A stretch of DNA of 64,000 nucleotides from Parcubacteria group bacterium GW2011_GWC1_36_108 (GTDB lineage Bacteria; Patescibacteriota; Minisyncoccia; Moranbacterales; GWC2-37-73): assembly GCA_000991245.1 (NCBI GenBank), contig LBRD01000006.1, positions 103,340-167,339 of the forward strand, given 5' to 3'. Below are positions 15,701 to 54,320 of the stretch, in pieces (position 1 is the first letter of the stretch; the number at the start of each line of letters is the position of its first letter). A model generated the notes under the pieces. That model was not told the DNA's origin. It worked only from the letters and a program-made list of their open reading frames with translations, and did not search any database. Both the position numbers and the translations under genes were made by a program.

Positions 15701-16412
15701 TTATATTATTAAGACCAGAATAATATGAAAGATAAATCCCATAGAAAAATCCCGTTATTGTTACATTTTTAATTGTAATACCTTTTTTACCATTAACAAT
15801 AAAAACGCCAGTGCCGGTATTTTTTCCAGTAATAATATGACCGTTACCATCCAGCGTTACGTTATCACTTTTTATCTGAACAGAATCATTAACATCTTGA
15901 TTCAAAGTGCATGTTTTTAGTGTATCATTCCAAACACCAATACTTGAACAATCTCCTCCATTAACATCGGTAATAAATTTTGTGCTTTTGCGAGGCTGTA
16001 TGAATATTAAATGACGCTGGCTGATATCTTGAATGAAAGAAAATGAACCTTTTTCATCTGATACAAAAGATTGGTAAGTGTCATAGTTATCTTGATATTT
16101 ATAATAAGTCGTGTTTGGCAAAAATCCGGAAATAATCAAACTGGAGGAAATTGCCGCATTCAAATTTTCCGTTTCCAAAACAACCATTTCCGGTGCAGAT
16201 TCCATCCTGACTTTAATATTTTCGCTACTATCCAATGTTATGTTTAAATATTCACTATCAACGATTTCAAAATGCATCCCAGTTCCACTCACAGATCCAG
16301 GAAACAATTTTTCCTCATCCGCCATAACCGAAGATGTGGAAAATAAAAATATTAAAATTAGCACAATCATTATCGTAAAATATCTCGTATTTTTATCAAA
16401 AAATGTTTTCAT
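12768..16412 (-). CDS. Giant secreted protein (1214 aa): signal peptide, right-handed parallel beta-helix (PbH1) repeats, alpha/beta-hydrolase (GHSxG lipase-like) domain
   Basis: N-terminal signal peptide; long series of repeats of the NxxxTxNxIxxN type (e.g. NVISNNVITKNSNAGLYL); TLIGHSNGGLL nucleophile-elbow motif near residue 700. Confidence 0.8.
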   Translation of the reverse strand: MKTFFDKNTRYFTIMIVLILIFLFSTSSVMADEEKLFPGSVSGTGMHFEIVDSEYLNITLDSSENIKVRMESAPEMVVLETENLNAAISSSLIISGFLPNTTYYKYQDNYDTYQSFVSDEKGSFSFIQDISQRHLIFIQPRKSTKFITDVNGGDCSSIGVWNDTLKTCTLNQDVNDSVQIKSDNVTLDGNGHIITGKNTGTGVFIVNGKKGITIKNVTITGFFYGIYLSYYSGLNNISFATLTGNRYGAYLDHSGANVISNNVITKNSNAGLYLFYSTKNIFTDNIVGPENKNGISESSQNYGYTYDTSNVYENNEVFENLEGGIYIYGGNRDILKNNKIKNNPYYGIEMIESSSSMLFGNVMSGNGEHNFYISGNKVEDNDIDTSNTVEDKAVYFIKNVINEIYDNLDDVGIFYCTNCQNVTLKNLSLSENKALIYFKNTANSLIENIASTSEDIKIIFEGSSNNTIKNSIFERAYLSYSDSNQFYGNNIMGTGAAVFQINSSINNSFNLDLPIGGNFWKKNEANCRDLNNDNICDSSYVFGGGSDYYPRVNKFEFEAEPICQENCYSNVMFLPGHQASRLYRKDSDGDEDQLWEPTNHNEDVEQLYMNQNDGSSNDPGIYTRDILDEAYGINNVYKGFMASMDNIVADGVINKWQAFAYDWRKPLEDVVDNGTKLEDGSVENVLDQIRNSAKESKTGKVTLIGHSNGGLLAKVIVDSLKKSGEEKLVDRIIMVATPQLGTPKAAAGLLHGDGSNFLYGLILDKKTARGFGENMISAYNLLPSKKYFDVVQSPVIEFDTDVKSIYDFPSIFGNDIDNFDEFKKFLLGDDGNRTEPDVDDTDSPNVLKDNFFSQAEKTHESLDSWQAPTGMEVMQIAGWGLDTISGIKYDDCDFIFCPDELSNLDRSLLFTQDGDETVVVPSAVEMDGNAEKYYVNLNRYNRLSNLKINREHADILEIKPLQDFIKNIIQDKKELVNYISTEKPEVKNEDKSLRYRLHSPVALHIYDKDGRHTGLIENKNPISDLKFFEKQIPNSYYMEFGETKYAGSEGNLAQTVVLKGEDLGTFTFEIDEIIGNQDVKTTTFSNIPVMQGMKAEVLISESVGEMKIDVDNDGETDAIFRSGEVIKKEDLLGIFEKIISSLDVDKTVKDRLINKIDNAKKQSEKGHSVAADAMLENVKHQIEILSDINTPEKFRIPKDEAEKLMGIIDKIRAV

Positions 16413-36054: not shown

Positions 36055-36138
36055 GCCCAAATGGTGGAACTGGTATACACGCACGACTCAAAATCGTGTG
36101 GCGCAAGCCATGAGAGTTCGAATCTCTCTTTGGGCACC
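36055..36138 (+). tRNA. tRNA-Leu (anticodon CAA), class II with 13-nt variable arm
   Basis: Hand fold: acceptor GCCCAAA/TTTGGGC (7 bp), D region TGGTGGAACTGGTATACAC (close to E. coli tRNA-Leu), anticodon stem CACGA/TCGTG with loop CTCAAAA (U33, CAA, A37), variable arm TGGCGCAAGCCAT, T arm GAGAG-TTCGAAT-CTCTC, discriminator A; CCA not encoded. Confidence 0.85.
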
Positions 36139-36526: not shown

Positions 36527-36563
36527 AATTATAAAAGCCCGCGCTAATGCACGGGCTTTTTTA
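36527..36563 (+). terminator. Rho-independent terminator
   Basis: aaagcccgcgctaatgcacgggcttttttaatt: stem gcccg.g/c.cgggc then a T-run. Confidence 0.6.
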
Positions 36564-36633: not shown

Positions 36634-37560
36634 CTATTTTTTCTTGGCGATACGCACCACACGCTGACGTGTTTTTGGCATTTGACGAACAATGTGCACG
36701 TGATGAGTAGTAGTCTTAGCTTTTTTGGCAACCCGAGCAGCGCGCAAATTGCGGAAAATTCTTTTAAGCATAACAATCAAAAGCACAAACAAAACTAGCA
36801 GCAATAATATTTTTGCTCCAAGCGCAACCCACAAACCGCGACTGCCTTGCAAGAAATTATTATCATTCGCAATGTTGCCAGCAATATTACTTTTTCCATA
36901 ATCAGCAAAGATAACTCTGATATATCCTTTGTTTTGCGAAACTTGCTGCGGTGCAGGATAAATCATAGGCTCAATTGATGATGTTGCTGAATCGGAAGAC
37001 ACGGAATCTTGATCAGCAACGACTTTTTCCTGAGCAGCCATTGGCATAATATATGCATTTCTTGGTGCAATTTGTTGAGTTGATTCTTTGATGATTTTGC
37101 TTCCAACAGTTTTAAGATTTGCAAATGTTGCATCAAATTTCTCCACCGGAATTTGAACCACAATTGAGCCATTTTTCAATTTGCTTCCAGAATATGAAAT
37201 TGCTGTTGAATAAACGACTCCTCCATTTTTTGTTGCCACTGCGGAAACAACCTTTTTTGCAGCCTCCAAATCACTTACCATAATCGCAAGTTCGCCACTT
37301 TTTGCAGCATCCTCGGGGATTATAAATTGATTTTCAATTCTTGGTGAAGGATAAACTACTCCGCCTCTATTCATCATTCCACTGCCATCATATTTAATTC
37401 CCAAATTTACATCACCTCTTCTTTCATGCATTTTCCAACCAGCAGCTGCAATTGAAAGAACTGCAATTGCCAAGAAAATAACACTGATTAAAATTACAAA
37501 TACTTTTTTGTGTTTTCCATCAAGCTTACAACACTTGATAAATGTTTCTTTTGTTTCCAT
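36634..37560 (-). CDS. Membrane-anchored hypothetical protein (N- and C-terminal TM; DUF4349-like layout)
   Basis: N-terminal TM VFVILISVIFLAIAVLSIAAAGW, C-terminal TM ILLLLVLFVLLIVML and basic tail; the middle resembles DUF4349 proteins (low certainty). Confidence 0.45.
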   Translation of the reverse strand: METKETFIKCCKLDGKHKKVFVILISVIFLAIAVLSIAAAGWKMHERRGDVNLGIKYDGSGMMNRGGVVYPSPRIENQFIIPEDAAKSGELAIMVSDLEAAKKVVSAVATKNGGVVYSTAISYSGSKLKNGSIVVQIPVEKFDATFANLKTVGSKIIKESTQQIAPRNAYIMPMAAQEKVVADQDSVSSDSATSSIEPMIYPAPQQVSQNKGYIRVIFADYGKSNIAGNIANDNNFLQGSRGLWVALGAKILLLLVLFVLLIVMLKRIFRNLRAARVAKKAKTTTHHVHIVRQMPKTRQRVVRIAKKK

Positions 37561-37714: not shown

Positions 37715-38329
37715 TTATGTATCTTCCAGATGTTTTCTCTTACTTCTCCTTTCATGGTAAATTTTTACCAATTCTTTATTATGATCAACAACGGCTTTAT
37801 TAAATTCTTTCTGTTTCTCATTAACCATAGGTAAGCTATCCGCAATGCTTTGACAATCAACAACCATTCCACTTCGCACAAACCTTTCATCTGCAATAAT
37901 AACATTTTCAATGATCGCGCCACTACCAATATAGCAATTTCTTCCAACCTCTGAACTATGCACTATCGCATGAAATCCCACAAATGTTTTTTTGCCAATT
38001 TTAGTTGGTCCATGCACAGTTGCTCTATGCGCAACAGTACAGTGTGAACCTATAAGAATAGAATATCCAATACCCTTTTCATCTTCGACAAACCTCCCAT
38101 GAAGTCCATGTAAAATTACAGAATCTTGAATACTTGTTCCCTTGCAGATTTTAAAAGGGGATCCTTCATCAGCTCTGATAGATACATGCGGACAAACAAT
38201 CACATCGTGCTCAAGAATGACTTTTCCTGTTATGCGTGCTGTACGACTAACATAACATTTTTCATCATCATACTCTGGATTTCCAAAAAATTCGTCGTCG
38301 TAAAAAACAACACCTTTTTTTCGATTCAT
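37715..38329 (-). CDS. Left-handed beta-helix (hexapeptide-repeat) protein, gamma-carbonic-anhydrase/PaaY-like
   Basis: Hexapeptide repeats with His-rich segment VILHGLHGRFV...HCTVAHRATVHG consistent with gamma-CA-family zinc ligands; last gene of the atp-Ehr-like gene string. Confidence 0.7.
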   Translation of the reverse strand: MNRKKGVVFYDDEFFGNPEYDDEKCYVSRTARITGKVILEHDVIVCPHVSIRADEGSPFKICKGTSIQDSVILHGLHGRFVEDEKGIGYSILIGSHCTVAHRATVHGPTKIGKKTFVGFHAIVHSSEVGRNCYIGSGAIIENVIIADERFVRSGMVVDCQSIADSLPMVNEKQKEFNKAVVDHNKELVKIYHERRSKRKHLEDT

Positions 38330-38444
38330 TTACCCCTCCTAGTTTTGTGATTAAATTCTATATTTTTAAAAAACATCATTGCCTATATTTTTACACACAA
38401 CTACAAACTTTACTCTGGAATTCCATCTATGTCAATACCTATTT

Positions 38445-40004
38445 TTATAAGTCAGTTCCGGAATATGATAGGTTCAGTGATTTATTGATAAGAGGAAAAT
38501 CTGGCACGATGTTGCCTGGCCCCATAATACCGAAAAGTGCCCAATTGCAAAATGATGGATCACGTGGAAAACATCGCTCAATAACACCATTTTTAATTTC
38601 AAGTGCGCACAAAATTTCTCCACGCCAAGATTCCACGGCGCTAATTGCATATCCATCCTTAATTTCAACAGGAACAGAAACATCCCCCGTTTCCATTTCA
38701 GCGATAATTTTTTCAATAAAATCAATTGACACTTTCATTTCTTCAATACGCACCAAATAACGTGAGTGCACATCTCCCTTTTTTTTCAAAGAAACAGTTG
38801 TTGGATATTTTTGATAAGCAGCATAGGGATGATCACGCCGCACGTCGCGATCAAGTCCTGACCCGCGAGCAGCAATTCCAAGCGCGCCAAAGGCTCTTGC
38901 CGCTTCCTGTCCAAGCACACCGGTTGTTTGCATACGATCAAGAAAACCATCGCTGGCAAGCGCCAACATAACAATTTTATTCATTTCAAAATATGCATCT
39001 TTGGAGATTTCCAGAATTTTTTTCAGTTGCAAATCATTTAAATCCTTTGTAACACCGCCGATAGTGATGAATTCTCGCCAAAAACGATTACCAAAAATAT
39101 CATCAGAAAGGCGCATCATTCTTTCCTTAATCCGAAAACCATTGGCCGCAATAAAGCTATACCCTGTTCCCATTCCGCCAATATTGGCCAGGTCGTGAAT
39201 ATGCATCGTCAATCTTTCGAGTTCCAAAACAAGTGTGCGCAACATTTTTGCGCGATCAGTTACATTGCAATTTGAAATAGTTTCGATTGCTTGAACATAT
39301 GCAAGACAATGAGAAGCTGCCATATCGCCAGAAATTCCTTCGACGTATGGCAAAGCATCTTTGGGATTTTTTCCTTCCATCAATTTTTCAACTCCCTTGT
39401 GTGTGAAAAACAATTTTCCTTCCAAAGTTAAAATCCTTTCTCCCGCAACATTAAAGCGAAAATGCCCCGGTTCGATAATTCCTGCGTGAATGGGCCCCAC
39501 TGGAATCTCAAAAATTCCTTCACCCTCAATATGATGCATTGGATATGGAACATTAGCCTTTTCAAGTTTAGTATTAACAGCAAAATCTTTTCGAAGTGGA
39601 TGCGTCCCTTCTGGAATATTTTCATGATTTACTAATCTTCTTGGATCTGGATGACCAACAGCAATGACACCAAACATATCTTGCATATATCGCTCATACC
39701 AATGCGCAGCCATAATTGTTCTCGTGATTGAGGGATAGCTTGGATCATTTTCCGGCAAACTTGCTGACAACCTTAACCATTGATGATTCGCATCATCTCC
39801 GAAAATCACATTCACACCAAAAGTCTGATTTTCTTTGCGGTTATCCGTGCCATACAAAGAAGACAAAAATAATTTGTGTTCATCAACAAGCGATGTTGAA
39901 ACACGCGCCAAATCTTCTCGCGAAACTGTTGCAAAAACAGTATTGTTTTTAATCTCCACAATTTTAACTTCTGATATTTTTTTTAAAATTTCTTGAATGT
40001 TCAT
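38445..40004 (-). CDS. Fused NuoC-NuoD-like subunit (Ehr-type large subunit): NiFe-hydrogenase-large-subunit fold lacking the Ni-binding cysteines
   Basis: NuoC-like N-domain (NVIFGDDANHQWLRL) and NuoD/HycE-like domain (IPVGPIHAGIIEPGHFRF). Where hydrogenases have RxCGxC the protein has GISGDMAASH; the C-terminal DPCxxC is replaced by DPSFCNW. Start chosen at MNIQEILKK; the track ORF extends to 40091. Confidence 0.8.
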   Translation of the reverse strand: MNIQEILKKISEVKIVEIKNNTVFATVSREDLARVSTSLVDEHKLFLSSLYGTDNRKENQTFGVNVIFGDDANHQWLRLSASLPENDPSYPSITRTIMAAHWYERYMQDMFGVIAVGHPDPRRLVNHENIPEGTHPLRKDFAVNTKLEKANVPYPMHHIEGEGIFEIPVGPIHAGIIEPGHFRFNVAGERILTLEGKLFFTHKGVEKLMEGKNPKDALPYVEGISGDMAASHCLAYVQAIETISNCNVTDRAKMLRTLVLELERLTMHIHDLANIGGMGTGYSFIAANGFRIKERMMRLSDDIFGNRFWREFITIGGVTKDLNDLQLKKILEISKDAYFEMNKIVMLALASDGFLDRMQTTGVLGQEAARAFGALGIAARGSGLDRDVRRDHPYAAYQKYPTTVSLKKKGDVHSRYLVRIEEMKVSIDFIEKIIAEMETGDVSVPVEIKDGYAISAVESWRGEILCALEIKNGVIERCFPRDPSFCNWALFGIMGPGNIVPDFPLINKSLNLSYSGTDL

Positions 40005-40141
40005 AATAATTTTATAAAAATAAATTTCTAATTCCCAATTTCCAATTCCTAATAAAAATTTTAATGCCCAATTCCCAAATTTTGAATTCAAGCATTTGAA
40101 ATTTTGTTGGAAATTTGATATTAGAAATTAGTAATTTTGCA

Positions 40142-41620
40142 CTACTGTGCAATGTATATTATATCTTTAGCGATCAAATCAATAAATTTAAGTCCGTCGG
40201 CTGATGAGAAAAAGAAGGTTAGTCCAACAACCAAAATCAATTGCACAATCATTACCCAGTGCGTAAGATTCCATTTTTCTCTATTCCCTAAAGACGTGAT
40301 GTCTTCCCCTTCAGAAAAAAACATTCCGATTGTTGAGCGAAGCATTGCGTATGCAATCACACTTAAGGCTGCAAAAATAAGCAATGACAAAAATGGATGC
40401 AGTGCAAAAGCACTAGTAAACATTGTATATTCACTTACAAACAAAATTGACGGAGGAAGCGCAATGATCGACAAAATACCAAACAAAAACAATATTGCTG
40501 TGAAAGGGGCTTTTTTCATCAAGCCTTTTATTTTTTCCGTCTGGGTTGTTTTGTAATTTATCAATATTTCGCCCGCTCCGAAGAAAAGCATTGACTTGGT
40601 AAGTGTATGTCCAATCATATGAATCACAGCTGCTAATGCTCCAATTGGAGATAATGCCAGGGCAAAAGTAATGATACCCATATGTTCAACGCTTGAATAC
40701 GCCAACATTCTTTTGTAATTACTTTGCACTAACATCATAAAAGCAGGAACTATGATTGAAATAAAACCAAAAAACAAAAATAGATGCCCTGTCCATTCGC
40801 TGCTTCCTAGTGCTAAATCAGTAATAAATCTAAAACGAATAATTCCATACAGTGCAATATTAAGCAAGATTCCAGAAAATAGACCGGAAATTGGCGAAGG
40901 CGCATTACTGTGTGCATCAGCCAACCAAATATGCATCGGCACCAAACCGAGCTTTGCTCCAAAACCAATAAAAATAAAAACAAAAGCCCATCTGGCAATA
41001 TCCGAAGAAAGCAAATGCGCATTTTGAGCAAGATTTGTTAAAGTAAAAAGATCGCTGCCACTTATGCCAGCCAAAGATGACCCATAACCAAGAAGCAAAA
41101 TTCCAAGCAACCCCAAACTTATCCCTGTTGAACAAATAATAATATATTTCCAAGCGGCTTCGGCTGATGTTTTTTTGCGATAAAGTCCAACCAAAAATGT
41201 TGAGGATAGCGTCGTGCCTTCAAGCGTCATCCAAAGCAACAGCGCATTATTAGCCATAACTGTAATCATCATACAAAGAGCAAAGATATGAAACAATCCG
41301 AAATAAAGCTTAAGATCACTAAGTGTTAGAATCTTTTCTTCATATTCATGCCCAATATAACGAAAACTCACAACAGCTGCGGACACATATACAAAAGCAA
41401 CCAGCGTTGCCATCAAAGCTGAAAAATTATCCACAAGCCATACGCTATCAGACCAAGCAGGTGATGACTGAAGAAGAACCGGCAAGGACATCGCGAAAAC
41501 TGAAGCTCCCGCAGCAATTGCAAGCAAAAGACTACTTTGACGAATATGTTTTTCTTTTTTAAGAAAAATCACGCAAGCTGTTGCAACAAGAATAATGATG
41601 ATTGTAATAATTGGTGTCAT
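40142..41620 (-). CDS. Complex-I NuoN/NuoM (MrpD) antiporter-like membrane subunit
   Basis: 492-aa polytopic protein with the conserved antiporter-like core; position in the nuo/hyf-like gene string. Confidence 0.7.
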   Translation of the reverse strand: MTPIITIIIILVATACVIFLKKEKHIRQSSLLLAIAAGASVFAMSLPVLLQSSPAWSDSVWLVDNFSALMATLVAFVYVSAAVVSFRYIGHEYEEKILTLSDLKLYFGLFHIFALCMMITVMANNALLLWMTLEGTTLSSTFLVGLYRKKTSAEAAWKYIIICSTGISLGLLGILLLGYGSSLAGISGSDLFTLTNLAQNAHLLSSDIARWAFVFIFIGFGAKLGLVPMHIWLADAHSNAPSPISGLFSGILLNIALYGIIRFRFITDLALGSSEWTGHLFLFFGFISIIVPAFMMLVQSNYKRMLAYSSVEHMGIITFALALSPIGALAAVIHMIGHTLTKSMLFFGAGEILINYKTTQTEKIKGLMKKAPFTAILFLFGILSIIALPPSILFVSEYTMFTSAFALHPFLSLLIFAALSVIAYAMLRSTIGMFFSEGEDITSLGNREKWNLTHWVMIVQLILVVGLTFFFSSADGLKFIDLIAKDIIYIAQ

Positions 41621-41769
41621 AAAGTTGTATTAAAAAATTCTAAAGGCTAAATTTTAAAGTCTAATTCAATTCTAAATTCTAAAGTTTAAATTAAAATGCA
41701 AGTCCTTTTATACTTTTCACTTTAGATTTGATTTAGTATTTAGTACTTAGACTTTAGCCTTTAATGATC

Positions 41770-43380
41770 TTATTCGGTTAAATTACGCAGGTCTTCAGTG
41801 TCAGAAGAACCATGAAATTCTCTGATGCGTGAACCTAAAATTGATAGAATAAATGCACTTGCAACAATGATAACAAACACACCAAGTTCAATTAGTAGCG
41901 GCAATGATTTTACAGTTACCAAAGTAAAAACTGTCACACCATTTTCAATAATAAGAAGTCCTAAAATTTGAGAAAAAATATTACGATGCACTATCATCGT
42001 TGCTAATCCTAAGCCAATAAGAGCAAAGGAAGCAAACAAAAGAGTGTCGAATTCCACCACGCCAACAATTGGAGTTTGCTTCATCACAAAAAATGTTGCA
42101 CCCAAAATAACAACTGCCACAAAATAACTAGAAGCGGGACGGAGAAATGATGGCGAACTTATGAGCTCTTTATGTTTTCTTTGTGCATAGCGAATAACAG
42201 CAGGAACCAAGAAAGTTTTAATCAAAATAGTCACAGCTGCAAAAAGCCACAGATGCTTTTTTTCCTCCCCGCCTAAAATAAAAGAAAGTCCAAGGGCAAT
42301 ACCAGCAATACTCAAAGAAGAAAAGGCGTAGTATCGAAGCATAACTTGTGAGCGAGCACGACCAAATAAAAGTATCACAAAAAATACTGCCAATATAGAA
42401 AATATTGTGTGATATTCAATATCAACATTGATAACAGAAGAAAACATCGCAATCAACATTCCAAACATTGCTGTGAAAAAAGCAATCGACATAAACTCCT
42501 GCATTCTATAGAATCTCATTTTAACAACAACTGTTTCAAGCAAAGCCAAGAATCCCATCGCAACAACAACTTTAATAATTCCAAATAAAACAGCAACAAT
42601 CCCAGCGCCCAAAGAAGCAATCATCCCAAGATTGGTAGCAACCGCAACAGTCTGCGGGAAAATAAAATTTGAAAGCAAAATAGCAAAAACGGTCAGTTTA
42701 ATTGCACTGGCATATTCAAGCATGGCCAAATATGCGCCAGAATATTCAAGAATCATTGCTTCATGTACCATTGTAAGTTCAAGATGTGTCGCTGGGTTAT
42801 CCACAGGGTAACGGGCATTTTCAGCCAAAGTTACCAATAAAAAAGCAAAAACAGAAAGCAACAAATATGGATGAGAAAAAACAAGTTGTTGTCCCACCAT
42901 TCCATCTATTGCAAAAGTACCACCCACAAGACTCATAGCGGCAAAAACCATTATTATTGTCGGCTCAACAAGGGCGGCTATTGTCATTTCACGACTTGAG
43001 CCCATTCCTCCAAAAGCACTCCCCGGATCAAGACCACCCAAAACCAAAAAGATTGAACCTATCATTAAAATCCCACCAACTACCAGAAAATCGCTCATGC
43101 TTGCCAATTTTCCACCAATAAATAGCAGAGGTAAAATAAAGGCCAATGCTATTGAAGTTGAAAAAACCACAAAAGGCACCACGCGAAAAACCCAAGATGT
43201 TGCAGTGGAGATAACCATTTGCTTTCTAAAAAGAGTCGCGAATGTATAATACGGCAAAAAAGGAGATGCGCCCTTGCGTCCTTGAAGACGCGCTTTACAA
43301 AAGCGGACCAAGCCGGAAGCAAACGGCGCAATCAGAATAACAAAAATTCCCTGTAATAATGTTGCTAATATTGGATTCAT
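41770..43380 (-). CDS. NuoH/HycD-like membrane subunit with C-terminal NuoJ/K(HyfE)-like extension
   Basis: N-terminal ARLQGRKGASPFLPYY resembles the HycD/NuoH quinone-loop region; 536 aa is ~200 aa longer than NuoH, and the tail carries extra TM helices. Start overlaps the upstream gene (ATGA). Confidence 0.65.
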   Translation of the reverse strand: MNPILATLLQGIFVILIAPFASGLVRFCKARLQGRKGASPFLPYYTFATLFRKQMVISTATSWVFRVVPFVVFSTSIALAFILPLLFIGGKLASMSDFLVVGGILMIGSIFLVLGGLDPGSAFGGMGSSREMTIAALVEPTIIMVFAAMSLVGGTFAIDGMVGQQLVFSHPYLLLSVFAFLLVTLAENARYPVDNPATHLELTMVHEAMILEYSGAYLAMLEYASAIKLTVFAILLSNFIFPQTVAVATNLGMIASLGAGIVAVLFGIIKVVVAMGFLALLETVVVKMRFYRMQEFMSIAFFTAMFGMLIAMFSSVINVDIEYHTIFSILAVFFVILLFGRARSQVMLRYYAFSSLSIAGIALGLSFILGGEEKKHLWLFAAVTILIKTFLVPAVIRYAQRKHKELISSPSFLRPASSYFVAVVILGATFFVMKQTPIVGVVEFDTLLFASFALIGLGLATMIVHRNIFSQILGLLIIENGVTVFTLVTVKSLPLLIELGVFVIIVASAFILSILGSRIREFHGSSDTEDLRNLTE

Positions 43381-45386
43381 AAAACTATAATTAATGTGAC
43401 AATTAATGTTCCCAAAACAAAAAGCAAATAATATTGAATACGCCCACCCTGAATCACGCGAGCACGCTCAGCCAAAAAATTCAAAATACCTGCGATCGGT
43501 TGATATAATTTATCTTTCCAAACAGATTTTAATGACATAGAAAAAGTATAGTTGCGAATCCAAGGATTAGTCTCAACAACTGCTACCGATTTTAAAACCT
43601 TATCTCTTCCCAATAAATGCAGAAAGAAAAACCTAATTGGGCCAGAAAAAGCCGTGGCGGAATATTGCATTGTTGCATCAATCGATTGCCCACAATCCCA
43701 CGTTTTGTATTTCCTCTCCGAAACCTTGCTGCCAAAAAAATTATACACTGCGTACGTCAGTGCCAAGAAAATTACAAACAGTGAAAATATCATTGATGAA
43801 GAAAGATGACTTGTTATTGCACTGATTGATTGATCAGAAGGCATTGTTGCCAAAATACCACCATTACCGTTTAACCATCCAATAATAGGTTTAGCAAAAA
43901 TACCCAAAACCAACACTCCTGATCCAAGTATCATCACAGGAATACTAAGCATATAATCAGTTTTTTCAGCTCTTTCTTCAATATGATCTGTACGAGGAAG
44001 TCCAAGCATTGAGATACCAAAAATTTTAATCATAGCAAATATTGCCAAACCACTGACAAGTCCCATAAGCGCGATACTGCCCAATATTACCAATATTGCA
44101 ACAGAATCAAGTAGCGGGCTACGTAATAAGCTGATTGCATTTTGAATCAATCCCCACTCTCCGTAAAATGTTCCGAATGGAGGAAGTGGAACTGCAGATA
44201 AAATTGCAATTAAAAATGCAAATGAAAAGAACGGCATAATTTTAGCCAAACCTCCCATCGCCTCAAGACTTTTAGAATGAAAACGACTGATTGCAATTCC
44301 ACTACTCAAAAAAAGTGCTGTTTTAAAAAGTGCATGATTTATTGCATGAAAAACAGCAAACACCACTATAATATTGGAAATTATCACAATACTGTCAGCA
44401 GAGCTTTGGGATAAAAGATAAATTGAAATTCCAAGCATCGTAAAAATAATTCCCATATTTTCAATACTACTATAAGCAAACGCACGTTTCATATCCCTTT
44501 CAATAACCGCATATAACACACCAACGATTGCAGAAAGAAGACCAAGCGCGATAACAACAAGTCCTGCCCAAGCAGGCAAATTCGTCATAGCAAAAACAAT
44601 TTTAATAAAACCATAAATTGCGACTTTAAGCATAAGACCGGACATCAAAGCTGAAATATTGCTTGGAGCTTGCGGATGCGCTTCTGGCAGCCAAACATGA
44701 AATGGAACAAGCCCAGCCTTTGAACCAAAACCAAACAAAAATAGCATGAAAGCAAGTGCGGCTAATGCTGGTGAAAGGGTTGATGATAAAAAAGCAATAT
44801 CAGAAAAATCAAAAAATAAATTTCCGCCACTCAAAATCAAAAAGCCTCCCAAAATTGCTGAGGCTCCAAGATGCGTCATAATAAAATACAAGAAAGCTGC
44901 GCGAACAGACTGAGAAGTTTTGTCAGCCATAACAAGAAAAAAAGATGTGATACTCATAACCTCCCAAAAAAACAAAAACGCAAAAGCGTTATTGGCAAAC
45001 AGTACTCCTTGCATTCCAAAAACAAAAACTACTGTTAAAAATTGTGTGAGCGCAGGATTATAAGTTTTTTCATAAAGCTCCAAATATCTCATGCTATATA
45101 TTCCCACCAAGGCTGACACAAAACTAATAACAATAAAGAAAATAGCGCTTAAGAGATTTACTGTCGGCGCAAAATTAAAAAGCCAATTCCATTGTCCCAA
45201 AATAATTTCCTTTGGGGCAAAATTAAACAAATATAAAATTCCAGCGATAAAACCCAGAGTATTTACTAAGACAAAAAGTTGAACGGATTTTTTCCATTGA
45301 CCGCCAATAAGCGCAAACAGAGCGGCAAAAAATAGGCCAAAAAAATAAACAAAAAAACCGAAAGCTATTAAATCTATCGTTATCAT
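43377..45386 (-). CDS. NuoL/MrpA/HyfB-like antiporter-type membrane subunit
   Basis: 669-aa polytopic protein of the NuoL/HyfB family. Confidence 0.75.
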   Translation of the reverse strand: MITIDLIAFGFFVYFFGLFFAALFALIGGQWKKSVQLFVLVNTLGFIAGILYLFNFAPKEIILGQWNWLFNFAPTVNLLSAIFFIVISFVSALVGIYSMRYLELYEKTYNPALTQFLTVVFVFGMQGVLFANNAFAFLFFWEVMSITSFFLVMADKTSQSVRAAFLYFIMTHLGASAILGGFLILSGGNLFFDFSDIAFLSSTLSPALAALAFMLFLFGFGSKAGLVPFHVWLPEAHPQAPSNISALMSGLMLKVAIYGFIKIVFAMTNLPAWAGLVVIALGLLSAIVGVLYAVIERDMKRAFAYSSIENMGIIFTMLGISIYLLSQSSADSIVIISNIIVVFAVFHAINHALFKTALFLSSGIAISRFHSKSLEAMGGLAKIMPFFSFAFLIAILSAVPLPPFGTFYGEWGLIQNAISLLRSPLLDSVAILVILGSIALMGLVSGLAIFAMIKIFGISMLGLPRTDHIEERAEKTDYMLSIPVMILGSGVLVLGIFAKPIIGWLNGNGGILATMPSDQSISAITSHLSSSMIFSLFVIFLALTYAVYNFFGSKVSERKYKTWDCGQSIDATMQYSATAFSGPIRFFFLHLLGRDKVLKSVAVVETNPWIRNYTFSMSLKSVWKDKLYQPIAGILNFLAERARVIQGGRIQYYLLFVLGTLIVTLIIVL

Positions 45387-45395
45387 ACAATTATA

Positions 45396-45935
45396 TTAAA
45401 AATTTTTCTGATTAAGAGATTGAAGAACTCCCCGCAAAATTTCAATAGGGCGTGGAGGATTTCCTGGAATACGGATATGCACAGGAATGACTTTTTCAAC
45501 TCCCCCAACCACAGCATATGAATCCTTCCAAATACCACCATCTATTGCTCCGTCGCCAAGTGCTACTACAATGCAAGGACTCGGTGCGGCTTCATAAGTT
45601 GTTTTAAGTGCATTTTCAAGATTGCGCGTAACCGGACCTGAAACAAAAAGCATATCGGCGTGCCTTGGAGATGCCACAAAAGTGAGTCCAAAACGATCAA
45701 TGTCATAATAAGCATTATTCAGGGCTGTAAACTCAATCTCTTCAGCGTTAGTAGAACCAGCATCAACCGCGCGGATGCGCAAAGAACGACCCCCGTATAA
45801 TCTTTTTATAGTAGCTTTTAGTTCCTCACCGACTTTTTCAAATTGAGCATCAACAGGAAAATCCCTGATTGTTTGTTCATTTTCTGTGACTTTTGGCCCA
45901 AATAGTAAGATTTTGAGTAATTGAAAAAATTTCAT
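45396..45935 (-). CDS. NuoB/hydrogenase-small-subunit-like protein lacking all Fe-S cluster cysteine ligands (Ehr-type small subunit)
   Basis: Alignable to NuoB: ADMLFVSGPVTRNLENAL...IVVALGDGAIDGG...VIPVHIRIPGNPP versus NuoB D.MIVAGT.T.KM...ISMGSCANGGG...PVDVYVPGCPP. Every Cys of the N2 cluster motifs (CCxxE, GxC, C-P) is substituted: AGSTNAEE, GDG, GNPP. Confidence 0.8.
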   Translation of the reverse strand: MKFFQLLKILLFGPKVTENEQTIRDFPVDAQFEKVGEELKATIKRLYGGRSLRIRAVDAGSTNAEEIEFTALNNAYYDIDRFGLTFVASPRHADMLFVSGPVTRNLENALKTTYEAAPSPCIVVALGDGAIDGGIWKDSYAVVGGVEKVIPVHIRIPGNPPRPIEILRGVLQSLNQKNF

Positions 45936-46385: not shown

Positions 46386-46823
46386 TTAATCTATCTTAAT
46401 ATTATGTCTGCTATGGTGTTTTCTGGCGACTCGAACGCGGGCAGATTCTTTCTCGATTGCTGCCGCTACCCTTGCATATTCCATCTCATTCATTGTTACT
46501 TTTTCTTTTTTAATTTCTTCCGCTCTCTTCCTAGCTTCTTCAGCCCGCTTCAAATCAATTTCGTCGGCTGCTTCAGCCGTGTCAGCCAGCACAACTAGCG
46601 TATTATTATTAAATTCAACAAAGCCGCTTGAAACAACCAACAAGGTTTCTTTCCCGCCCACTTTAAACATAACCTCGCCAGCTTTTAGCGATGCAATATA
46701 CGAACGATGATCCGGCATGATTGTCACTTCCCCATCAGTAACTGGAAGCGTGATCTGATCAACCTCCTGCTCGAAAAGCGTTCGTTCAGGAGTAACAATT
46801 TTGAAATTTATTTTTTTGGACAT
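46386..46823 (-). CDS. atpC: ATP synthase epsilon subunit
   Basis: 145 aa, last gene of the atp operon; N-terminal beta-sandwich pattern IVTPERTLFEQEVDQITLPVTDGEVTIMPDH. Confidence 0.85.
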   Translation of the reverse strand: MSKKINFKIVTPERTLFEQEVDQITLPVTDGEVTIMPDHRSYIASLKAGEVMFKVGGKETLLVVSSGFVEFNNNTLVVLADTAEAADEIDLKRAEEARKRAEEIKKEKVTMNEMEYARVAAAIEKESARVRVARKHHSRHNIKID

Positions 46824-46968
46824 AAATATAATAAATTAATTCCTAATTTCCAATTCCTAATTTCCAACAAAATTTCAAATACTTTTAATTTAAAATTTAT
46901 GCATTGGACATTAAGATTTTATTAGAAATTAGATATTAGATATTGGAAATTATGAAATCAAAAAATTA

Positions 46969-48351
<1,383 letters not shown>

Positions 48352-48579
48352 TTATTTATTAGGATAATTAATGTTATTTAAATTATGTTTATAATTTCGA
48401 ATTTCCAATTTTGAATTTCGAATCAATTTCTAATGCTTGAATTTTTAATGTTTCAAACATTATATCATTCAGATTTGATTCGAAATTCAAAATTCAGACT
48501 TCGAAATTGTTTCGAGAACCATGTTCTATTTGTGGCCTTTTTAAGCCCTAAACAGAATCAGAATCTCGAATTATTGTTT

Positions 48580-48645
48580 GACCTGTCGCTCGCGAGCGAC
48601 GGGTCTTGACTTTTTGGTGATTTGGGTGTATACTATACGGTTGTA
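48580..48645 (+). promoter_or_regulatory. Near-consensus sigma70 promoter (TTGACT-17-TATACT) preceded by a 26-bp GC-rich palindrome (candidate operator)
   Basis: gacctgtcgctcgcgagcgacgggtc (13-bp arms, one G-T mismatch) at 48580-48605, immediately followed by TTGACT (48606-48611), a 17-nt spacer and TATACT (48629-48634). Confidence 0.55.
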
Positions 48646-48694
48646 GTTATTTAAATAAATCGCAACAAAATTCTTTTGCAAGGGGAGTAGTGAA

Positions 48695-48919
48695 ATGAGC
48701 TCAAAACTTATTCAAGTAAATACCTACCATGTCGGTCACAATGGTGGTCCAGGTGGACCAATTAACATGCAACGCTTCATGGATCACTTCAAACTCATAT
48801 CCAAGTTTGATGAGCTCCCAAAAAGCATTAAATTAATTACTGCGGATGGGACAGAAATAGAAATCATGCCAGATGAGTCAACTGGTAATCTATGGGTTTC
48901 TATCTACACGCGCCCATAA
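48695..48919 (+). CDS. Hypothetical 74-aa protein encoded antisense within the atp operon spacer
   Basis: AAGGGGAG SD 8 nt upstream of ATG; own promoter and terminators; no recognisable domain (MSSKLIQVNTYHVGHNGGPGGPINMQRF...). Confidence 0.5.
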   Translation: MSSKLIQVNTYHVGHNGGPGGPINMQRFMDHFKLISKFDELPKSIKLITADGTEIEIMPDESTGNLWVSIYTRP

Positions 48920-48929
48920 CACCCCTTTA

Positions 48930-49028
48930 CCGCTCCGTTCCGAGATTCATTCGGAATGTGAGCGGTTTTTTTATTTTTTCCAAATTTTCAAAACTACTTT
49001 TTTTGTCATTCCGAACTTGTTTCGGAAT
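48930..49028 (+). terminator. Two consecutive stem-loops with T-tracts downstream of the 74-aa gene
   Basis: ccgctc...gagcgg with T-run (48930-48990), then ttccgaa cttgt ttcggaa (49008-49028). Confidence 0.45.
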
Positions 49029-49183
49029 CTAGAAGAGCATGAATGTTCAAGCCCGACGAGATCCTGAAACACCCGCCTCGACTCGCGAGACGATCGCTCG
49101 TCGAAGCGAGGCGGGAGTTCAGGATGACAATATATTTTAAATTTGCATTTTCCTAAGAAGCTAAAAAGCTAAAGCCTAATAAG

Positions 49184-50143
49184 CTACTCAAGGGCTGCTC
49201 TCCCTGCTGAAATCTCAGCGATTTCCTGCGTAATCTTTCCTTGTCTGATTTGGTTATATGCCAGAGTCAAATCCTCACTCATCTCTCCGGCTGCGTCGGT
49301 GGCGTTTCTCATGGCGAGCATTCGCGCAGATTGCTCGGAGGCTTGCGATTCCAAAACTGCGTGGAAAAGCTGCATCTCAATCAAACGCGGAATGATAAAT
49401 TCCAAAACCTCTTCGGGACTAGGCTCAATCTTATATTCAACCATAGGCTCTTCCAATCCATATTCTTTAGCAATAATATCCATTTCAGCAATTTGTTTTT
49501 CAATATCAATTTTTGAAATCGGCAAAACCTGACGAATTCTGGTTTGCTGATTTACAGCACTGACATAATCAGTATACACAACAACAACTTTGTCATATTT
49601 TTTTGCCAAATAATCTTCCATCACAATTTTTGAAAGTGGTTTGATGTCAGCGACAGTCGCAAATTTTCCACCATCTTCAAAAGCAGCGATGATATCTTTT
49701 TGCATTTTTTTCACCATACTCTCACCTTTTTTTCCAATCGTAATAAAATCAATCTTCAAATCTTCGTCTTTGATTTTTGATTCTATTTTCTTTTTTCCAA
49801 TACGGTTTATTTTCAATTTTTCAGGATGCAAAATTTCTTCTTTAATTTTTTTGGCAACTTGCGTGTTAAATGATCCGCAAAGTCCGCGGTTAGAAGTCAC
49901 AGCAATAATCAAAACACTTTTCACTTCGCGCACTTCCAAGAAACCATATCCTTGTGAAGATTCAAAAGCTCGCGCCAAGTTTGTCAGCACACTCCAAGCA
50001 GCATGAGCGTATGGTCTAATCCCCAGCACACTAGCCACTGCGCGCCTCATTTTTGCAGCACTAACCATCTCCATCGCTTTTGTTATCTTGCGAGTGGAGT
50101 TAATAGAGCGTATTCGTCTTTTTATGTCGAGTGATGAAGCCAT
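49184..50143 (-). CDS. atpG: ATP synthase gamma subunit
   Basis: KRRIRSINSTRKITKAMEMVSAAKMRRA N-terminal helix and C-terminal ...AQLTLEYNRARQ-like end (TLAYNQIRQGKITQEI). Confidence 0.9.
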   Translation of the reverse strand: MASSLDIKRRIRSINSTRKITKAMEMVSAAKMRRAVASVLGIRPYAHAAWSVLTNLARAFESSQGYGFLEVREVKSVLIIAVTSNRGLCGSFNTQVAKKIKEEILHPEKLKINRIGKKKIESKIKDEDLKIDFITIGKKGESMVKKMQKDIIAAFEDGGKFATVADIKPLSKIVMEDYLAKKYDKVVVVYTDYVSAVNQQTRIRQVLPISKIDIEKQIAEMDIIAKEYGLEEPMVEYKIEPSPEEVLEFIIPRLIEMQLFHAVLESQASEQSARMLAMRNATDAAGEMSEDLTLAYNQIRQGKITQEIAEISAGRAALE

Positions 50144-50275
50144 ATGTTTATATTAAATATCAAATTAAAAATAACAAATATCAAATGAATTCCAAATGCC
50201 AAATGTTTTAATTTTGTCATTTAAGAATTTAAGCATTTATTTGAAATTTTTAATTTATAATTTGAAATTCTGCTT

Positions 50276-51781
50276 TTATGTGGTCTGATATATTTCCTTA
50301 AACTCCTTAATCGCCTTTTCCAATCCCGCCACAACGTCTTCTGAAAGTTCTTTCTTTTCTGAAATTAGTGCGATCAATTCTTTAGCATTAGAATCCAAAT
50401 ATTTATGAAAATCTTTTTCCCAAGTTTTGATTTCTTCCACCGCCACATCATCCAAAAATCCATTCGTCAGTGCATACAAGATTGCAACTTGATGCTCAAC
50501 AACCATTGGTTCGTATTGTCCTTGCTTAAGAATTTCAACTGATCGTCTTCCACGTTCAATCTGAGCGCGAGTTTTTTCATCAAGATCAGAGCCGAATTGT
50601 GCAAACGCTTCAAGTTCACGAAACTGAGCAAGTTCAAGACGAATCTTTCCAGCCACTTTTTTCATAGCTTTGATTTGAGCGCTACCACCCACACGAGAAA
50701 CTGAAAGTCCCACATTTACGGCTGGACGAATTCCTTTATAGAATAAATCTGATTCCAAGAAAATTTGACCGTCAGTGATAGAAATAACATTAGTTGGAAT
50801 GTATGCACTAACATCTCCTGCTTGCGTTTCAATAATCGGAAGTGCGGTCATTGAACCACCACCGAAGTCTTCATTAAGTTTCGCACTTCTTTCCAAGAGT
50901 CGTGAATGCAAATAAAAAACATCTCCTGGATATGCTTCGCGTCCCGGTGGACGTTTCAAAATCAAAGAAATCTGACGATATGCCCAAGCGTGACGAGAAA
51001 GATCATCGAACACGATCAAAACATCCTCTCCTTTGTCCATAAAATATTCTCCAAGCGCGCAACCAGAATATGGAGAAATGTATGAAAGCGCTGAAGATTC
51101 AGATGCTCCTGCTACCACAATAGTTGTATATTCCATTGCTCCACGTTTTTCAAGTTCTCCCAAAATACGTGCAATCTTTGATTCTTTCTGACCAATCGCC
51201 ACATAAATACATTTCATGTTCTGACCTTTTTGATTGATAATGGTATCAATTGCAATCGCAGTCTTTCCAGTTTGACGATCACCAATAATAAGTTCGCGTT
51301 GTCCGCGTCCAATTGGAATCATCGCATCGATAGCTTTAATTCCAGTCTGTACCGGCTGATGAACTGATTTACGAGTAATAACGCCAGGTGCAATTTTTTC
51401 TACAGGATAAAATTTATCAGCTGCAATATCGCCTTTTCCATCTACTGGAATTCCAAGCGGATTAATAACACGTCCGATCATTGCATCAGACACTGGAATT
51501 GAAAGAACTTTGCCCGTGGCTTTAACCTCATCACCTTCTTTGATTCCAGTATAATTTCCGAGCACAATTACACCCACGCGATCTTCTTCAAGATTAAGCG
51601 CCACGCCGATTTCCCCATTTGGGAATTCAACCATTTCTGATGCCATAAGCTCTGAAAGTCCAGAAACACGAGCAACACCGTCACCCATTTCAATAACTTT
51701 CCCAACTTTTTCAGTCGAAGTTTCAGTTTTGAATCCTTCGATTTGCTTTTTTAATTGTTCGATAATGAAATCTTTGTTCAT
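50276..51781 (-). CDS. atpA: ATP synthase alpha subunit
   Basis: [19 protein letters not shown] Walker A; 501 aa. Confidence 0.95.
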
Positions 51782-51870
51782 AATATATAGTTATAAAGTT
51801 TATAAGGTTTTTAAAGTTTATAAAGTAAAATACATCCACACTTTACGAACTTTATGAACTTTACGAACTT

Positions 51871-52287
51871 TTAACTTATTAATTTATTTTTCAAATTAGT
51901 TAATTGTTTTTTCACACTACCATCTATAATATCATCATTAATCTTGATTATAATTCCTCCTTGAATCTTTTCATCAATAACATTCTTGATCTCCACAACT
52001 TTAGCTGAATATTTTTCTTTCACAAATTTTTCAATTTTCTCTTTCATTTCGTGTTCAATTTTTTCCTTTGTCACAACTTCGGCCACAATTATTCCATTTG
52101 CAGCATTATATAATTCGCCAAATTTTTCCATTATTTTTCCAGCATTTTTCAATTGTCCGTCAGCCTTCAATTGCTGCGCAAATTTTTTCACAATAACTAA
52201 AAGCTCCTGCTCGGATTTTCCGTCGGTCATTTCAAAAAGTGTTTGGGAATATTGCTTAATGGATACTTTCATTTTTGTGAATATCAA
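51871..52287 (-). CDS. atpH: ATP synthase delta (OSCP) subunit
   Basis: 138-aa helical protein between atpF and atpA; weak OSCP-like C-terminus. Confidence 0.65.
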   Translation of the reverse strand: MIFTKMKVSIKQYSQTLFEMTDGKSEQELLVIVKKFAQQLKADGQLKNAGKIMEKFGELYNAANGIIVAEVVTKEKIEHEMKEKIEKFVKEKYSAKVVEIKNVIDEKIQGGIIIKINDDIIDGSVKKQLTNLKNKLIS

Positions 52288-52391
52288 ATTTCAAATTAAA
52301 AATTCCAAATCAATTATTAAATTTCTTAATTACAAATTTCAAACATTTGGCATTTGAAATTCATTTGATATTTGTAATTTGTTATTTTTAA

Positions 52392-52880
52392 TTATCTGAT
52401 TGCTTTTGCAATTAAATCAGTGTCTTTCTCACTTGTCATTTTTTCATCAATAAGTTTTCTGGTTGCTGCCACCACCAATTCAGCGATTTGCCCTTTCACT
52501 TCTTGCATCATTTGATTTTTTTCTAATTCAATCTTTTTTGCACTGTCAGCAAGAATTTTTTCAGCTTGCGCTTTTGCCTCAACCACAATTTCTTCCTTGT
52601 TTTTTACAGCCACAGCCTCGGCTTTAGCCACAATTTCTTGCGCAGTTTTTCGAGCCTCAACCAAAACTTCCTTTTCCTTCTGCGTAATTTCAGCGAGCCT
52701 TTTCTGCGATTCTTCTGCGTCTGCAATTCCTTTTTCAATTTTTTCACTGCGCTCATTCATCAATTTCATCATTGGACCATAAGCATAACGCTTAAGCACA
52801 AATAAAACGATGGCAAAGTTTACCAACTGCGCAATGATTAATTTAATGTCGATGTGAAATGTTGAGATTAGTTCTTGCAT
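52392..52880 (-). CDS. atpF: ATP synthase b subunit
   Basis: Single N-terminal TM then long charged coiled coil (AEAE/KAQAE repeats). Confidence 0.75.
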   Translation of the reverse strand: MQELISTFHIDIKLIIAQLVNFAIVLFVLKRYAYGPMMKLMNERSEKIEKGIADAEESQKRLAEITQKEKEVLVEARKTAQEIVAKAEAVAVKNKEEIVVEAKAQAEKILADSAKKIELEKNQMMQEVKGQIAELVVAATRKLIDEKMTSEKDTDLIAKAIR

Positions 52881-53058
52881 AAAATTTTGTAATTTTGTAA
52901 TTTTGTAATTTTTAAATAATGTCCTAATTTCTAATTTTTAAAAATTATAATTTAAGATTTATTTATAAAATTTAAAAATTAAAAATTTGAAATTGCTATT
53001 TTATAATATTCTCATCTCGACTTCCTATTTCTAAGAAGCCGAATGAAAACACTAATAA

Positions 53059-53373
<315 letters not shown>

Positions 53374-53450
53374 TTAATTTCTTAAATTCTGAATTGCATT
53401 TTTGAATTTGTATTTTGCATTCTGCATTTCCTACAACCTAATTCCTGCTC

Positions 53451-54320
53451 CTAATGCTCTTCTGCTGTCGTTGCTATACTCATAAACGCCAAAGTCAAAA
53501 TTGCAAACACTAGAGCCTGCACTATTCCAACTATCAATTCCAAAAACATAAACGGGATTGGCAGCAGGAATGCAGAAATGGCCATCATTGAAGCTAGCAA
53601 AACTTCTCCTGCAAAAATATTTCCAAAAAGTCGAAGACTAAGCGATGCAATCTTGGCGATTTCCCCTACCACCTCAATCAAACCTACGAAAGCTTTGATT
53701 GGATTTACCATTATCAAAATCGGTTCTTTGCGTCCCTTTTTGAAAATTTGCAAAAATGCTTTGATGTTAAAAAATTTATTGAAATGATTCCAAGCTCCAA
53801 CCCAAACAACACCCAGAATGTGCGAAAGAATCACTGCAAAAAGTGAAATTGCTAAGGTTGTGTTAAGGTCAGCTGTAGCGCCGCGTAAAAATGGAATGAA
53901 AACTTTTCCGTGTGCGCCTGTCTCCACAAATCCAATCGTACCAACTCCCGGAAGAAGTCCTAACCAATTGTTTACCAAAATAAACAAGAATAGTGACAAT
54001 ACTACTGGCAAAAATTTTCCTGTTTTTTTGCGAGAACCAGTGACACTATCAGCCAAATTCAAGGCTTGTTCTAAAAGAATTTCAAAAATATTTTGCACAC
54101 CAGACATTTTCTTTGTTTTTTTGCTAGCCTTTTTACCAACAAGCACAAAAAAAGTCACCAAAATGGCAACTGTGATCCAACTCATAACAAGCGAATTTGT
54201 GATTGTAAAATTTCCCACATGCAAAATCGGCTCAGCGAACAAGGTTGATTCTGTTTGAATCTCCTGAGAAGGTTGTGTATTATTTTGTGTTGATAACTCC
54301 GACATCAATTTCTGAACCAC
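53451..54320 (-). CDS. atpB: ATP synthase a subunit
   Basis: VNNWLGLLPGVGTIGF and the conserved Arg-containing TM4 region (ASLSLRLFGNIFAGE). Confidence 0.85.
   Translation of the reverse strand: MVQKLMSELSTQNNTQPSQEIQTESTLFAEPILHVGNFTITNSLVMSWITVAILVTFFVLVGKKASKKTKKMSGVQNIFEILLEQALNLADSVTGSRKKTGKFLPVVLSLFLFILVNNWLGLLPGVGTIGFVETGAHGKVFIPFLRGATADLNTTLAISLFAVILSHILGVVWVGAWNHFNKFFNIKAFLQIFKKGRKEPILIMVNPIKAFVGLIEVVGEIAKIASLSLRLFGNIFAGEVLLASMMAISAFLLPIPFMFLELIVGIVQALVFAILTLAFMSIATTAEEH

Follow-up and report, generated by a model that had tools for sequence, protein, structure and literature searches.

We analysed a 64,000-nucleotide stretch of contig LBRD01000006.1 (hereafter the window) from Parcubacteria group bacterium GW2011_GWC1_36_108, a bacterium of the Moranbacteria type within the Candidate Phyla Radiation (CPR). 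It carries five genes for a membrane complex of the energy-converting hydrogenase related (Ehr) type, whose subunits resemble those of complex I and in which, as judged by alignment, all eight metal ligands (four for a [4Fe-4S] cluster and four for a [NiFe] site) are replaced. The five genes are preceded by an F1Fo ATP synthase operon and followed by a gene for a carbonic anhydrase (CA). We give about even chances to the reading that they encode an ion translocator that works independently of redox chemistry and is linked in function to the ATPase and to the chemistry of CO2, HCO3- and H+.

The genome under study was seen within the window only, and comparison loci (labelled L with three digits) were obtained by scans of a genome collection. 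The first scan, which used very general peptide patterns, returned at least 80 loci from many phyla, mostly from outside the CPR, and is a comparison set rather than a census. The second, with the clade-specific C-terminus of the NuoCD protein as query, returned 61 CPR-clade loci, which are likewise a sample and not a census. Open reading frames (ORFs) of the comparison loci were called mechanically, and counts of genomic context (on 31, 55 and 28 loci) were made after removal of duplicates. Because the loci share common ancestry, these counts do not represent independent events.

Cofactor-ligand positions in the five Ehr-type subunits

The five genes are co-oriented and tightly spaced on the minus strand between positions 45935 and 38445. 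The initial annotation had described them as encoding NuoB-, NuoL-, NuoH(+JK)-, NuoN- and NuoC/D-like proteins, and both the ORFs and the Pfam and NCBIfam assignments bear this out:

45396..45935, minus strand, NuoB/HycG-like small subunit of 179 amino acids (PF01058, 83 bits)
43377..45386, minus strand, HyfB/NuoL-like antiporter-like subunit of 669 amino acids (PF00361 and PF00662; best NCBIfam model NF005086, HyfB, 487 bits, end to end)
41770..43380, minus strand, fusion of 536 amino acids of a HyfC/NuoH-like part (residues about 1-315) with a HyfE, NuoJ/K-like part (about 330-536)
40142..41620, minus strand, HyfF/NuoM-N-like antiporter-like subunit of 492 amino acids (PF00361; best model NF005044, HyfF, 351 bits)
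38445..40004, minus strand, HycE/HyfG-type NuoC-NuoD fusion (NuoCD) of 519 amino acids from the ATG at 40004 (PF00329 and PF00346)

Within the third protein, PF00146 matches residues 12-311, NF008556 (HyfE) residues 330-534 and PF00420 residues 447-534; in other CPR and non-CPR loci the HyfC/NuoH-like and HyfE parts are encoded by two separate genes. NuoCD was called from a TTG codon (40091-38445, 548 amino acids) but, since its homologues have 519 amino acids, the ATG at 40004 is most likely the start. It shares 60-89% identity with its counterparts in metagenome-assembled genomes (MAGs) of Moranbacteria, Falkowbacteria, Uhrbacteria and Parcubacteria. All NCBIfam scores fell below the equivalog cut-offs, so the five proteins are divergent members of their families.

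The initial annotation had further claimed that every cluster cysteine of the NuoB-like protein and both CxxC pairs of the NuoD-like part were lost, and alignments to solved structures confirmed both losses. Against MbhJ (6CFW_J) and HycG (7Z0S_G), the four [4Fe-4S] cysteines of the small subunit align to T62, E65, G129 and N159, the motif SCNGCE...GACxxGG...GCPP of MbhJ/HycG being STNAEE...GDGAIDG...GNPP in the window protein. Against HycE (7Z0S_E), which is the best solved relative of NuoCD and aligns over nearly its full length (E=1.5e-62), the two [NiFe] CxxC pairs align to S/M and S/G, with RVCGICGFAH and DPCYSCTD of HycE corresponding to GISGDMAASH and NLSYSGTD. The replacement residues are themselves kept in the CPR clade, as T/S-E-G-D/N in NuoB (n=34 deduplicated sequences) and as S-M/A/S-S-G in NuoCD (n=50 deduplicated sequences). 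A sequencing or frameshift artefact could be ruled out, because the identical substitutions recur in independently assembled contigs of the clade, and their conservation also speaks against decay. With every redox centre lost, the complex is predicted to be unable to act as an oxidoreductase or a hydrogenase. As the initial annotation had stated, no NuoE/F/G, formate dehydrogenase or hydrogenase maturation (Hyp) genes are present among the annotated ORFs of the window; the operon contains neither HyfA/HyfH-type ferredoxin subunits nor HyfD, nor did the annotated window ORFs reveal a redox partner.

Ehr large subunits without metal-binding cysteines have already been described in the CPR. Jaffe 2020 reports that CPR sequences form a monophyletic group inside Ehr and that their large subunits are devoid of these cysteines (PMC7304191). 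The window large subunit is the kind of CPR Ehr protein described there, and the absence of the NiFe cysteines is therefore not new; neither the cluster of the small subunit nor the ATP synthase nor a carbonic anhydrase came up in the passages of that paper that were searched. We grouped the loci of the first scan by their ligands, the following numbers being those among the matches listed:

true hydrogenases, with NiFe cysteines and four iron-sulphur (FeS) cysteines: 12 loci
NiFe cysteines present, one FeS cysteine: 1 locus (L030)
Ehr-type, no NiFe cysteines, all four small-subunit cysteines: 54 loci
Ehr-type, three small-subunit cysteines: 1 locus
Ehr-type, zero or one small-subunit cysteine: 10 loci, namely eight CPR-type and two Methanosarcinales (L037 and L067)

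Among the matches listed, the four FeS cysteines of NuoB are retained in 54 of 64 Ehr-type loci, which makes their loss a derived trait of the CPR clade and not a general trait of Ehr. The earlier claim that the module fits the Ehr complexes therefore stood in part: the large subunit, homologous to group 4 hydrogenases and NuoD, lacks both CxxC pairs, and NuoB-like (PF01058), NuoH-like (PF00146) and two Mrp/NuoL-type antiporter-like (PF00361) subunits are encoded in the operon, whereas the N2-type small-subunit cysteines that are typical of the sampled Ehr loci (a formal definition may differ) are missing. The fully cofactor-free state is, by this comparison, a derived sub-type and not typical Ehr. 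The small-subunit FeS cysteines are also gone from the two Methanosarcinales proteins (L037:11419-12057, D-P-D-N; L067:11634-12152, D-T-D-N), possibly independently of the loss in the CPR.

The gene set of the window, with small, HycE-like large, NuoH-like and antiporter-like subunits, is that of Ehr in other organisms. The window clade differs from these in its gene order, B-L-H(E)-N-CD instead of the L-H-E-N-CD-B that is common in other Ehr, and in its linkage to atp and CA genes. The best subunit matches are to HyfB, HyfE, HyfF, HycE and HycG of the E. coli formate hydrogenlyase/hydrogenase-4 systems (Hyc/Hyf, group 4a, PDB 7Z0S), whose large subunit is, like that of the window complex, a NuoC-NuoD fusion. 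Nevertheless, the window complex lacks the NiFe site, the FeS cluster, HyfA/HyfH and HyfD of Hyc/Hyf, and formate dehydrogenase and maturation genes do not accompany it among the annotated window ORFs. Neither a group 4 [NiFe] hydrogenase (Hyf/Hyc/Ech/Mbh), in which NiFe and FeS ligands are expected and of which all eight are absent here, nor a respiratory complex I, with its N2 cluster, NuoEFG and separate NuoA/J/K, is encoded by these genes, and the scores lie far below the Nuo equivalog cut-offs.

The residues expected for ion pumping are retained. In the HyfB-like subunit, there is no or almost no variation at E142, K223, H230, H237, K254, H351 and K355 among 38 clade members, and in the HyfF-like subunit E134, K223, H230, H338 and K342 are invariant in 43, with H237 also kept. 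From known motifs, we take these charged residues to occupy the positions of the Glu of transmembrane helix (TM) 5, the Lys of TM7/8 and the Lys of TM12 in NuoL/M/N. The NuoH part has conserved glutamates at E131, E139, E187, E201, E207, E222 and E282 (about 40 clade members). In the roughly 70 CPR-clade loci with Ehr that were examined, the ORFs are intact, NuoCD has a mean column identity of 74% across CPR lineages, and the cap formed by NuoB and NuoCD is evidently under strong purifying selection.

The ATP synthase and carbonic anhydrase genes beside the complex

On the minus strand, the following elements flank the five genes:

46386..54320, minus strand, F1Fo ATP synthase operon (a, c, b, delta, alpha, gamma, beta, epsilon; Pfam matches for epsilon, beta and gamma, the rest read from ORFs)
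37715..38329, minus strand, cytoplasmic Cam/CcmM-type gamma-carbonic anhydrase of 204 amino acids, 115 bp after NuoCD
36634..37560, minus strand, DUF4349-like membrane protein (weak PF14257), the last gene before the terminator
36533..36560, minus strand, strong intrinsic terminator (12-bp stem with 7 GC pairs, then a T run) that closes the transcription unit

The ATP synthase subunits read from ORFs agree with the Pfam-annotated order in L149 and L152. The position of the complex immediately downstream of the ATP synthase, to which the initial annotation had drawn attention, is no one-off: of the 31 CPR-clade loci with enough upstream DNA, 21 have atpD/atpC immediately before the NuoB gene. 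In two loci (L122:954-2021 and L124:2231-2944), atpC and the NuoB-like gene are separated by genes for GGDEF diguanylate cyclases. We considered a Na+-coupled ATP synthase and set it aside because the c-subunit, inspected by eye, lacks the Q...E-S/T signature for Na+; this is weak evidence.

Between atpC and the end of the DUF4349-like gene, including the gap between NuoCD and the CA gene, no terminator was found. The hairpin at 36533-36560 is the strongest terminator-like site on the minus strand from 47000 to 36400, with the longest stem and the most G-C pairs, and sub-threshold Rfam matches to leader RNAs cluster on it. No riboswitch or other RNA regulator was found upstream of the operon with Rfam; the sole match above threshold in the window is a tRNA gene (36055-36136, plus strand) just past the terminator. 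A sigma-70-like site (38407-38435, minus strand; TTGACA, 17 nucleotides, TAAAGT) lies in the 115-bp gap, so the anhydrase may also have a promoter of its own. The DUF4349-like protein has hydrophobic segments at its N- and C-terminal ends and a basic tail, as read from its sequence, and probably spans the membrane twice. Its gene is syntenic 3' of the CA gene in many Moranbacteria-type loci, and may or may not be part of the module.

The CA gene immediately downstream of NuoCD, which the initial annotation did not mention, is our main functional clue. Its product matches NF053794 (CcmM, 1.6e-46) and NF040597 (carbonic anhydrase, 1.4e-36), both below the model cut-offs, and among PDB entries CcmM 3KWC (1.3e-32) and Cam 1QRF. 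The Zn-binding H74, H101 and H106 are conserved, as are the catalytic R52, D54, E55 and Q68; by eye, the position of Cam Glu84 is occupied by His. With a predicted left-handed beta-helix, three Zn histidines and catalytic residues, the protein is assigned to the gamma class (Cam/CcmM). In other CPR-clade loci, the same slot is occupied by CAs of different families:

gamma-CA: window, L084/85, L089, L093 and L122, with Zn histidines and catalytic residues conserved
Pro_CA_2 (PF20393, about 313 amino acids): L001, L099, L100, L103/107 and L111, with C-x-D/E-x-R and H-x-x-C-G
stand-alone CsoSCA-like CA (PF20686, about 350 amino acids): 10 loci downstream, and the gap between atpC and NuoB in L096, L098 and L132, with an invariant C-x-D-x-R...H...C

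The Pro_CA_2 protein of L125 is a degenerate copy without the catalytic motifs. A CA gene directly follows the Ehr genes in 20 of 55 CPR-clade loci, and one is found on either side in 12-13 of the 28 loci with both flanks visible. In a neighbour-joining tree, the CA families are interleaved among close relatives; the window and L086, whose NuoCD proteins are 96% identical, carry a gamma-CA and a CsoSCA-like CA, respectively. The CsoSCA-like CA cannot be regarded as a subunit exclusive to Ehr, given that it stands alone in L144 and L147, is linked to atp genes without Ehr in L148/L149 and L152, and lies by a DabA cluster in L151. The arrangement of an atp operon followed by a CsoSCA-like CA without Ehr spans L148:3277-11026, L149:225-8841 and L152:2922-11095; L148/L149 share the flanking synteny of the window, while the flanks of L152 differ (DnaK/DnaJ upstream and TatD downstream). 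The atp-CA pairing in the CPR seems worth studying for itself. No Pfam or NCBIfam match was obtained for flanking ORFs of L088 (173 amino acids), L109 (328), L112 (373 and 209), L113 (218), L117 (206) and L136 (283), and none in NCBIfam, the only library scanned for it, for that of L133 (200).

Outside the CPR, clusters of SulP, Ehr and CsoSCA-like CA genes were found in Betaproteobacteria (Thiobacillus L076 and the Rhodocyclaceae MAG L146), with no atp genes nearby. SulP directly adjoins Ehr in L066 and in the CPR locus L141, and lies within a few kb of it in L042 and L049. A CA as universal partner of Ehr was rejected, as a Pfam search of 97 ORFs that flank Ehr in 58 non-CPR loci gave no enriched neighbour family and just two SulP matches. 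In the Saccharibacteria MAG L010, a gene for an NADP-dependent malic enzyme, which releases CO2, directly follows the Ehr operon (11577-12722). The cluster at L151:11166-21053 contains SulP, an unusually long DabA (1122 amino acids) and four PF00361 antiporter-like genes, is convergent with the CsoSCA-like CA gene, and looks like an enlarged DAB-type system.

The remainder of the window holds housekeeping genes typical for small genomes. It also contains two genes for AbiEii-type toxins of type IV toxin-antitoxin systems (1321-1947 and 9450-10247, both on the minus strand), an ORF of 943 amino acids without a Pfam match (6468-9299, minus strand) and a gene for a protein of 1214 amino acids with beta-helix/NosD repeats and an LCAT-type lipase domain (12768-16412, minus strand).

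Possible functions of the complex

Under the reading that we favour, the window genes would encode a Hyf/Ehr-type complex-I-like membrane complex without redox centres that is driven by an ion gradient, in which the two antiporter-like subunits and the NuoH/HyfE channel would retain the charged residues for translocation of ions (H+ or another cation). Without a redox centre, an ion gradient is the only driving force available and, together with the intact pumping residues, this makes a gradient-coupled ion translocator the simplest reading. In fermentative cells without a respiratory chain, the ATPase probably makes the proton gradient. The complex would then act together with the F1Fo ATPase and the cytoplasmic CA, whose genes share a conserved module with its own, and the gradient would most likely be spent on proton or cation movement tied to the balance of CO2, HCO3- and H+, since the recurrent company of the complex (a proton pump/synthase, a CA and sometimes SulP-type anion transporters) points to the handling of protons and inorganic carbon. 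The SulP-Ehr-CsoSCA-like clusters of L076 and L146 lend this reading independent support from beyond the CPR. What the analysis shows is the gene content, the lost ligands, the conservation and the shared neighbourhood of atp and CA genes; ion translocation, its direction, the ion species and a physical or kinetic coupling to the anhydrase are all points that we infer.

Such a function would be akin to that of the DAB and NDH-1MS CO2-hydrating systems, minus the redox drive. In both of these, antiporter-like subunits drive vectorial CO2 hydration (PMC6981117). DAB (DabA/DabB) places a NuoL-type antiporter-like subunit beside a protein with the beta-class CA fold and is energised by the membrane gradient and not by redox chemistry; the CsoSCA-like family found beside Ehr also sits by the SulP-DabA cluster of L151. 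However, no match to DabA (PF10070) was found among the annotated window genes, the window complex keeps NuoH, NuoB and NuoCD, and the CAs beside Ehr are ordinary, interchangeable and soluble, whereas that of DAB is a dedicated, membrane-anchored subunit. In the cyanobacterial NDH-1MS/MS' (NdhD3/F3-CupA/S), CO2 hydration is likewise coupled to a machine of the complex I type (PMC6981117), but this machine transfers electrons from ferredoxin to plastoquinone, keeps its FeS clusters and carries in CupA a protein unrelated to gamma-, beta- and CsoSCA-type CAs. A bolder version of the same idea, which we hold to be doubtful, is that the atp-Ehr-CA block is a DAB-like device, which would join NDH-1MS and DAB as a third energy-coupled machine for inorganic carbon. 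In that case, the gradient made by the F-ATPase from fermentative ATP would drive the redox-free complex-I-like engine, CO2 hydration or the movement of bicarbonate and protons would be made directional while swappable gamma-, beta- or CsoSCA-type CAs do the chemistry, and autotrophs would have their own form of the device in the betaproteobacterial SulP-Ehr-CA clusters.

Several observations weigh against a tie between the complex and CO2 chemistry. It is not obvious why CPR bacteria would need a carbon-concentrating mechanism. More than half of the CPR-clade loci have no CA neighbour, among them deep CPR branches, and the same is true of nearly all sampled non-CPR Ehr loci. In the Ehr-less CPR genomes L148/L149 and L152, a CsoSCA-like CA gene lies directly 3' of atpC (gap of 23 bp in L152). 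In L129 (8743-10192), a CsoSCA-like CA gene is followed by a remnant of 66 amino acids of the NuoCD C-terminus (83% identical) and then by a Na/Ca exchanger gene; this is evidently an Ehr operon caught after deletion. Since the CA follows atpC where Ehr is missing and was kept beside the remnant in L129, it may belong with the ATP synthase or reflect mere shared synteny. The anhydrase is thus not an obligate subunit of Ehr, and what looks stable is the combination of atp and CA, with Ehr as an option. Moreover, the ease with which ordinary soluble CAs are swapped speaks against a tight integration in the style of DabA or CupA, and a CA free in the cytoplasm would be expected to run down any bicarbonate pool kept away from equilibrium. 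Recent papers call the function of Ehr unknown or merely speculate on it (PMC10284858, PMC10432482).

The principal rival, which we think less probable though well worth considering, is a plain Mrp-like antiporter of monovalent cations and protons that would serve Na+, K+ or pH homeostasis on the gradient of the ATPase, the CA being merely atp-associated. Mrp has homologous antiporter-like subunits and operates independently of redox chemistry on a gradient, and the intact antiporter-like subunits of the window complex agree with this, as do the CA genes that follow atpC even without Ehr, the many Ehr loci without a CA and the Na/Ca exchanger genes downstream in L105 and L128/L129. Mrp antiporters are not known to contain NuoH-, NuoB-, NuoC- and NuoD-like subunits and have MrpE/F/G instead, which are not encoded in the window module. 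A plain antiporter would therefore leave the strong conservation of the NuoB/NuoCD/NuoH cap unexplained, as well as the betaproteobacterial SulP-Ehr-CA clusters without a nearby atp operon. The conservation of a cap that is absent from Mrp suggests that something still occurs, or is gated, near the former active site.

That the complex is still a redox enzyme seems very improbable to us. An electron-input partner might be encoded elsewhere, given that just 64 kb of the genome was examined and that other Ehr have been proposed to pair with formate dehydrogenase or NuoEF modules (PMC6349859), or the cofactor might be organic or ligated by residues other than cysteine. Nevertheless, the eight cysteines have given way to T/E/G/N and S/M/S/G, which are not ligands of metal clusters and are conserved as such, the operon and the annotated window ORFs offer neither HyfA/HyfH-type subunits nor a redox partner, respectively, and without an N2-type cluster no wire would lead to the former active site. 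Very improbable, too, is that the complex assists or regulates the F1Fo ATP synthase (for instance as a proton-path partner or an assembly scaffold) instead of being an independent transporter. The conserved atp-Ehr adjacency would fit such a role, and co-orientation suggests read-through transcription, but atp genes are not adjacent in 10 of the 31 assessable CPR loci, nor in the non-CPR Ehr loci, the atp operon is retained in close relatives that have no Ehr, and we know of no precedent for such a role. Finally, the patchy distribution of the complex and its clear loss from some genomes (the L129 remnant and L148/L149) could suggest a decaying, functionless relic; this is effectively refuted by the conservation pattern, as ORFs are intact in the clade's loci, identities across CPR lineages are as high as stated above, many residues are invariant and even the residues in place of the former ligands are conserved.

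In the literature, we found no paper that links Ehr to carbonic anhydrase, and our search did not find the clade-specific FeS loss, the conserved atp-Ehr arrangement or the multi-family CA slot in papers. A 2024 review lists just two CO2-active complexes, NDH-1/Cup and DAB (PMC10880623); if the proposed tie to CO2 chemistry is true, this short list of membrane complexes could grow. From the recurring atp-Ehr-CA order comes a hypothesis, open to test by expression, on how CPR bacteria manage their energy and their pH/CO2 balance. A clade that has lost its redox centres, yet in which both the cap and the pumping arm remain under selection, represents a natural experiment on what the complex-I scaffold may do without electron transfer.

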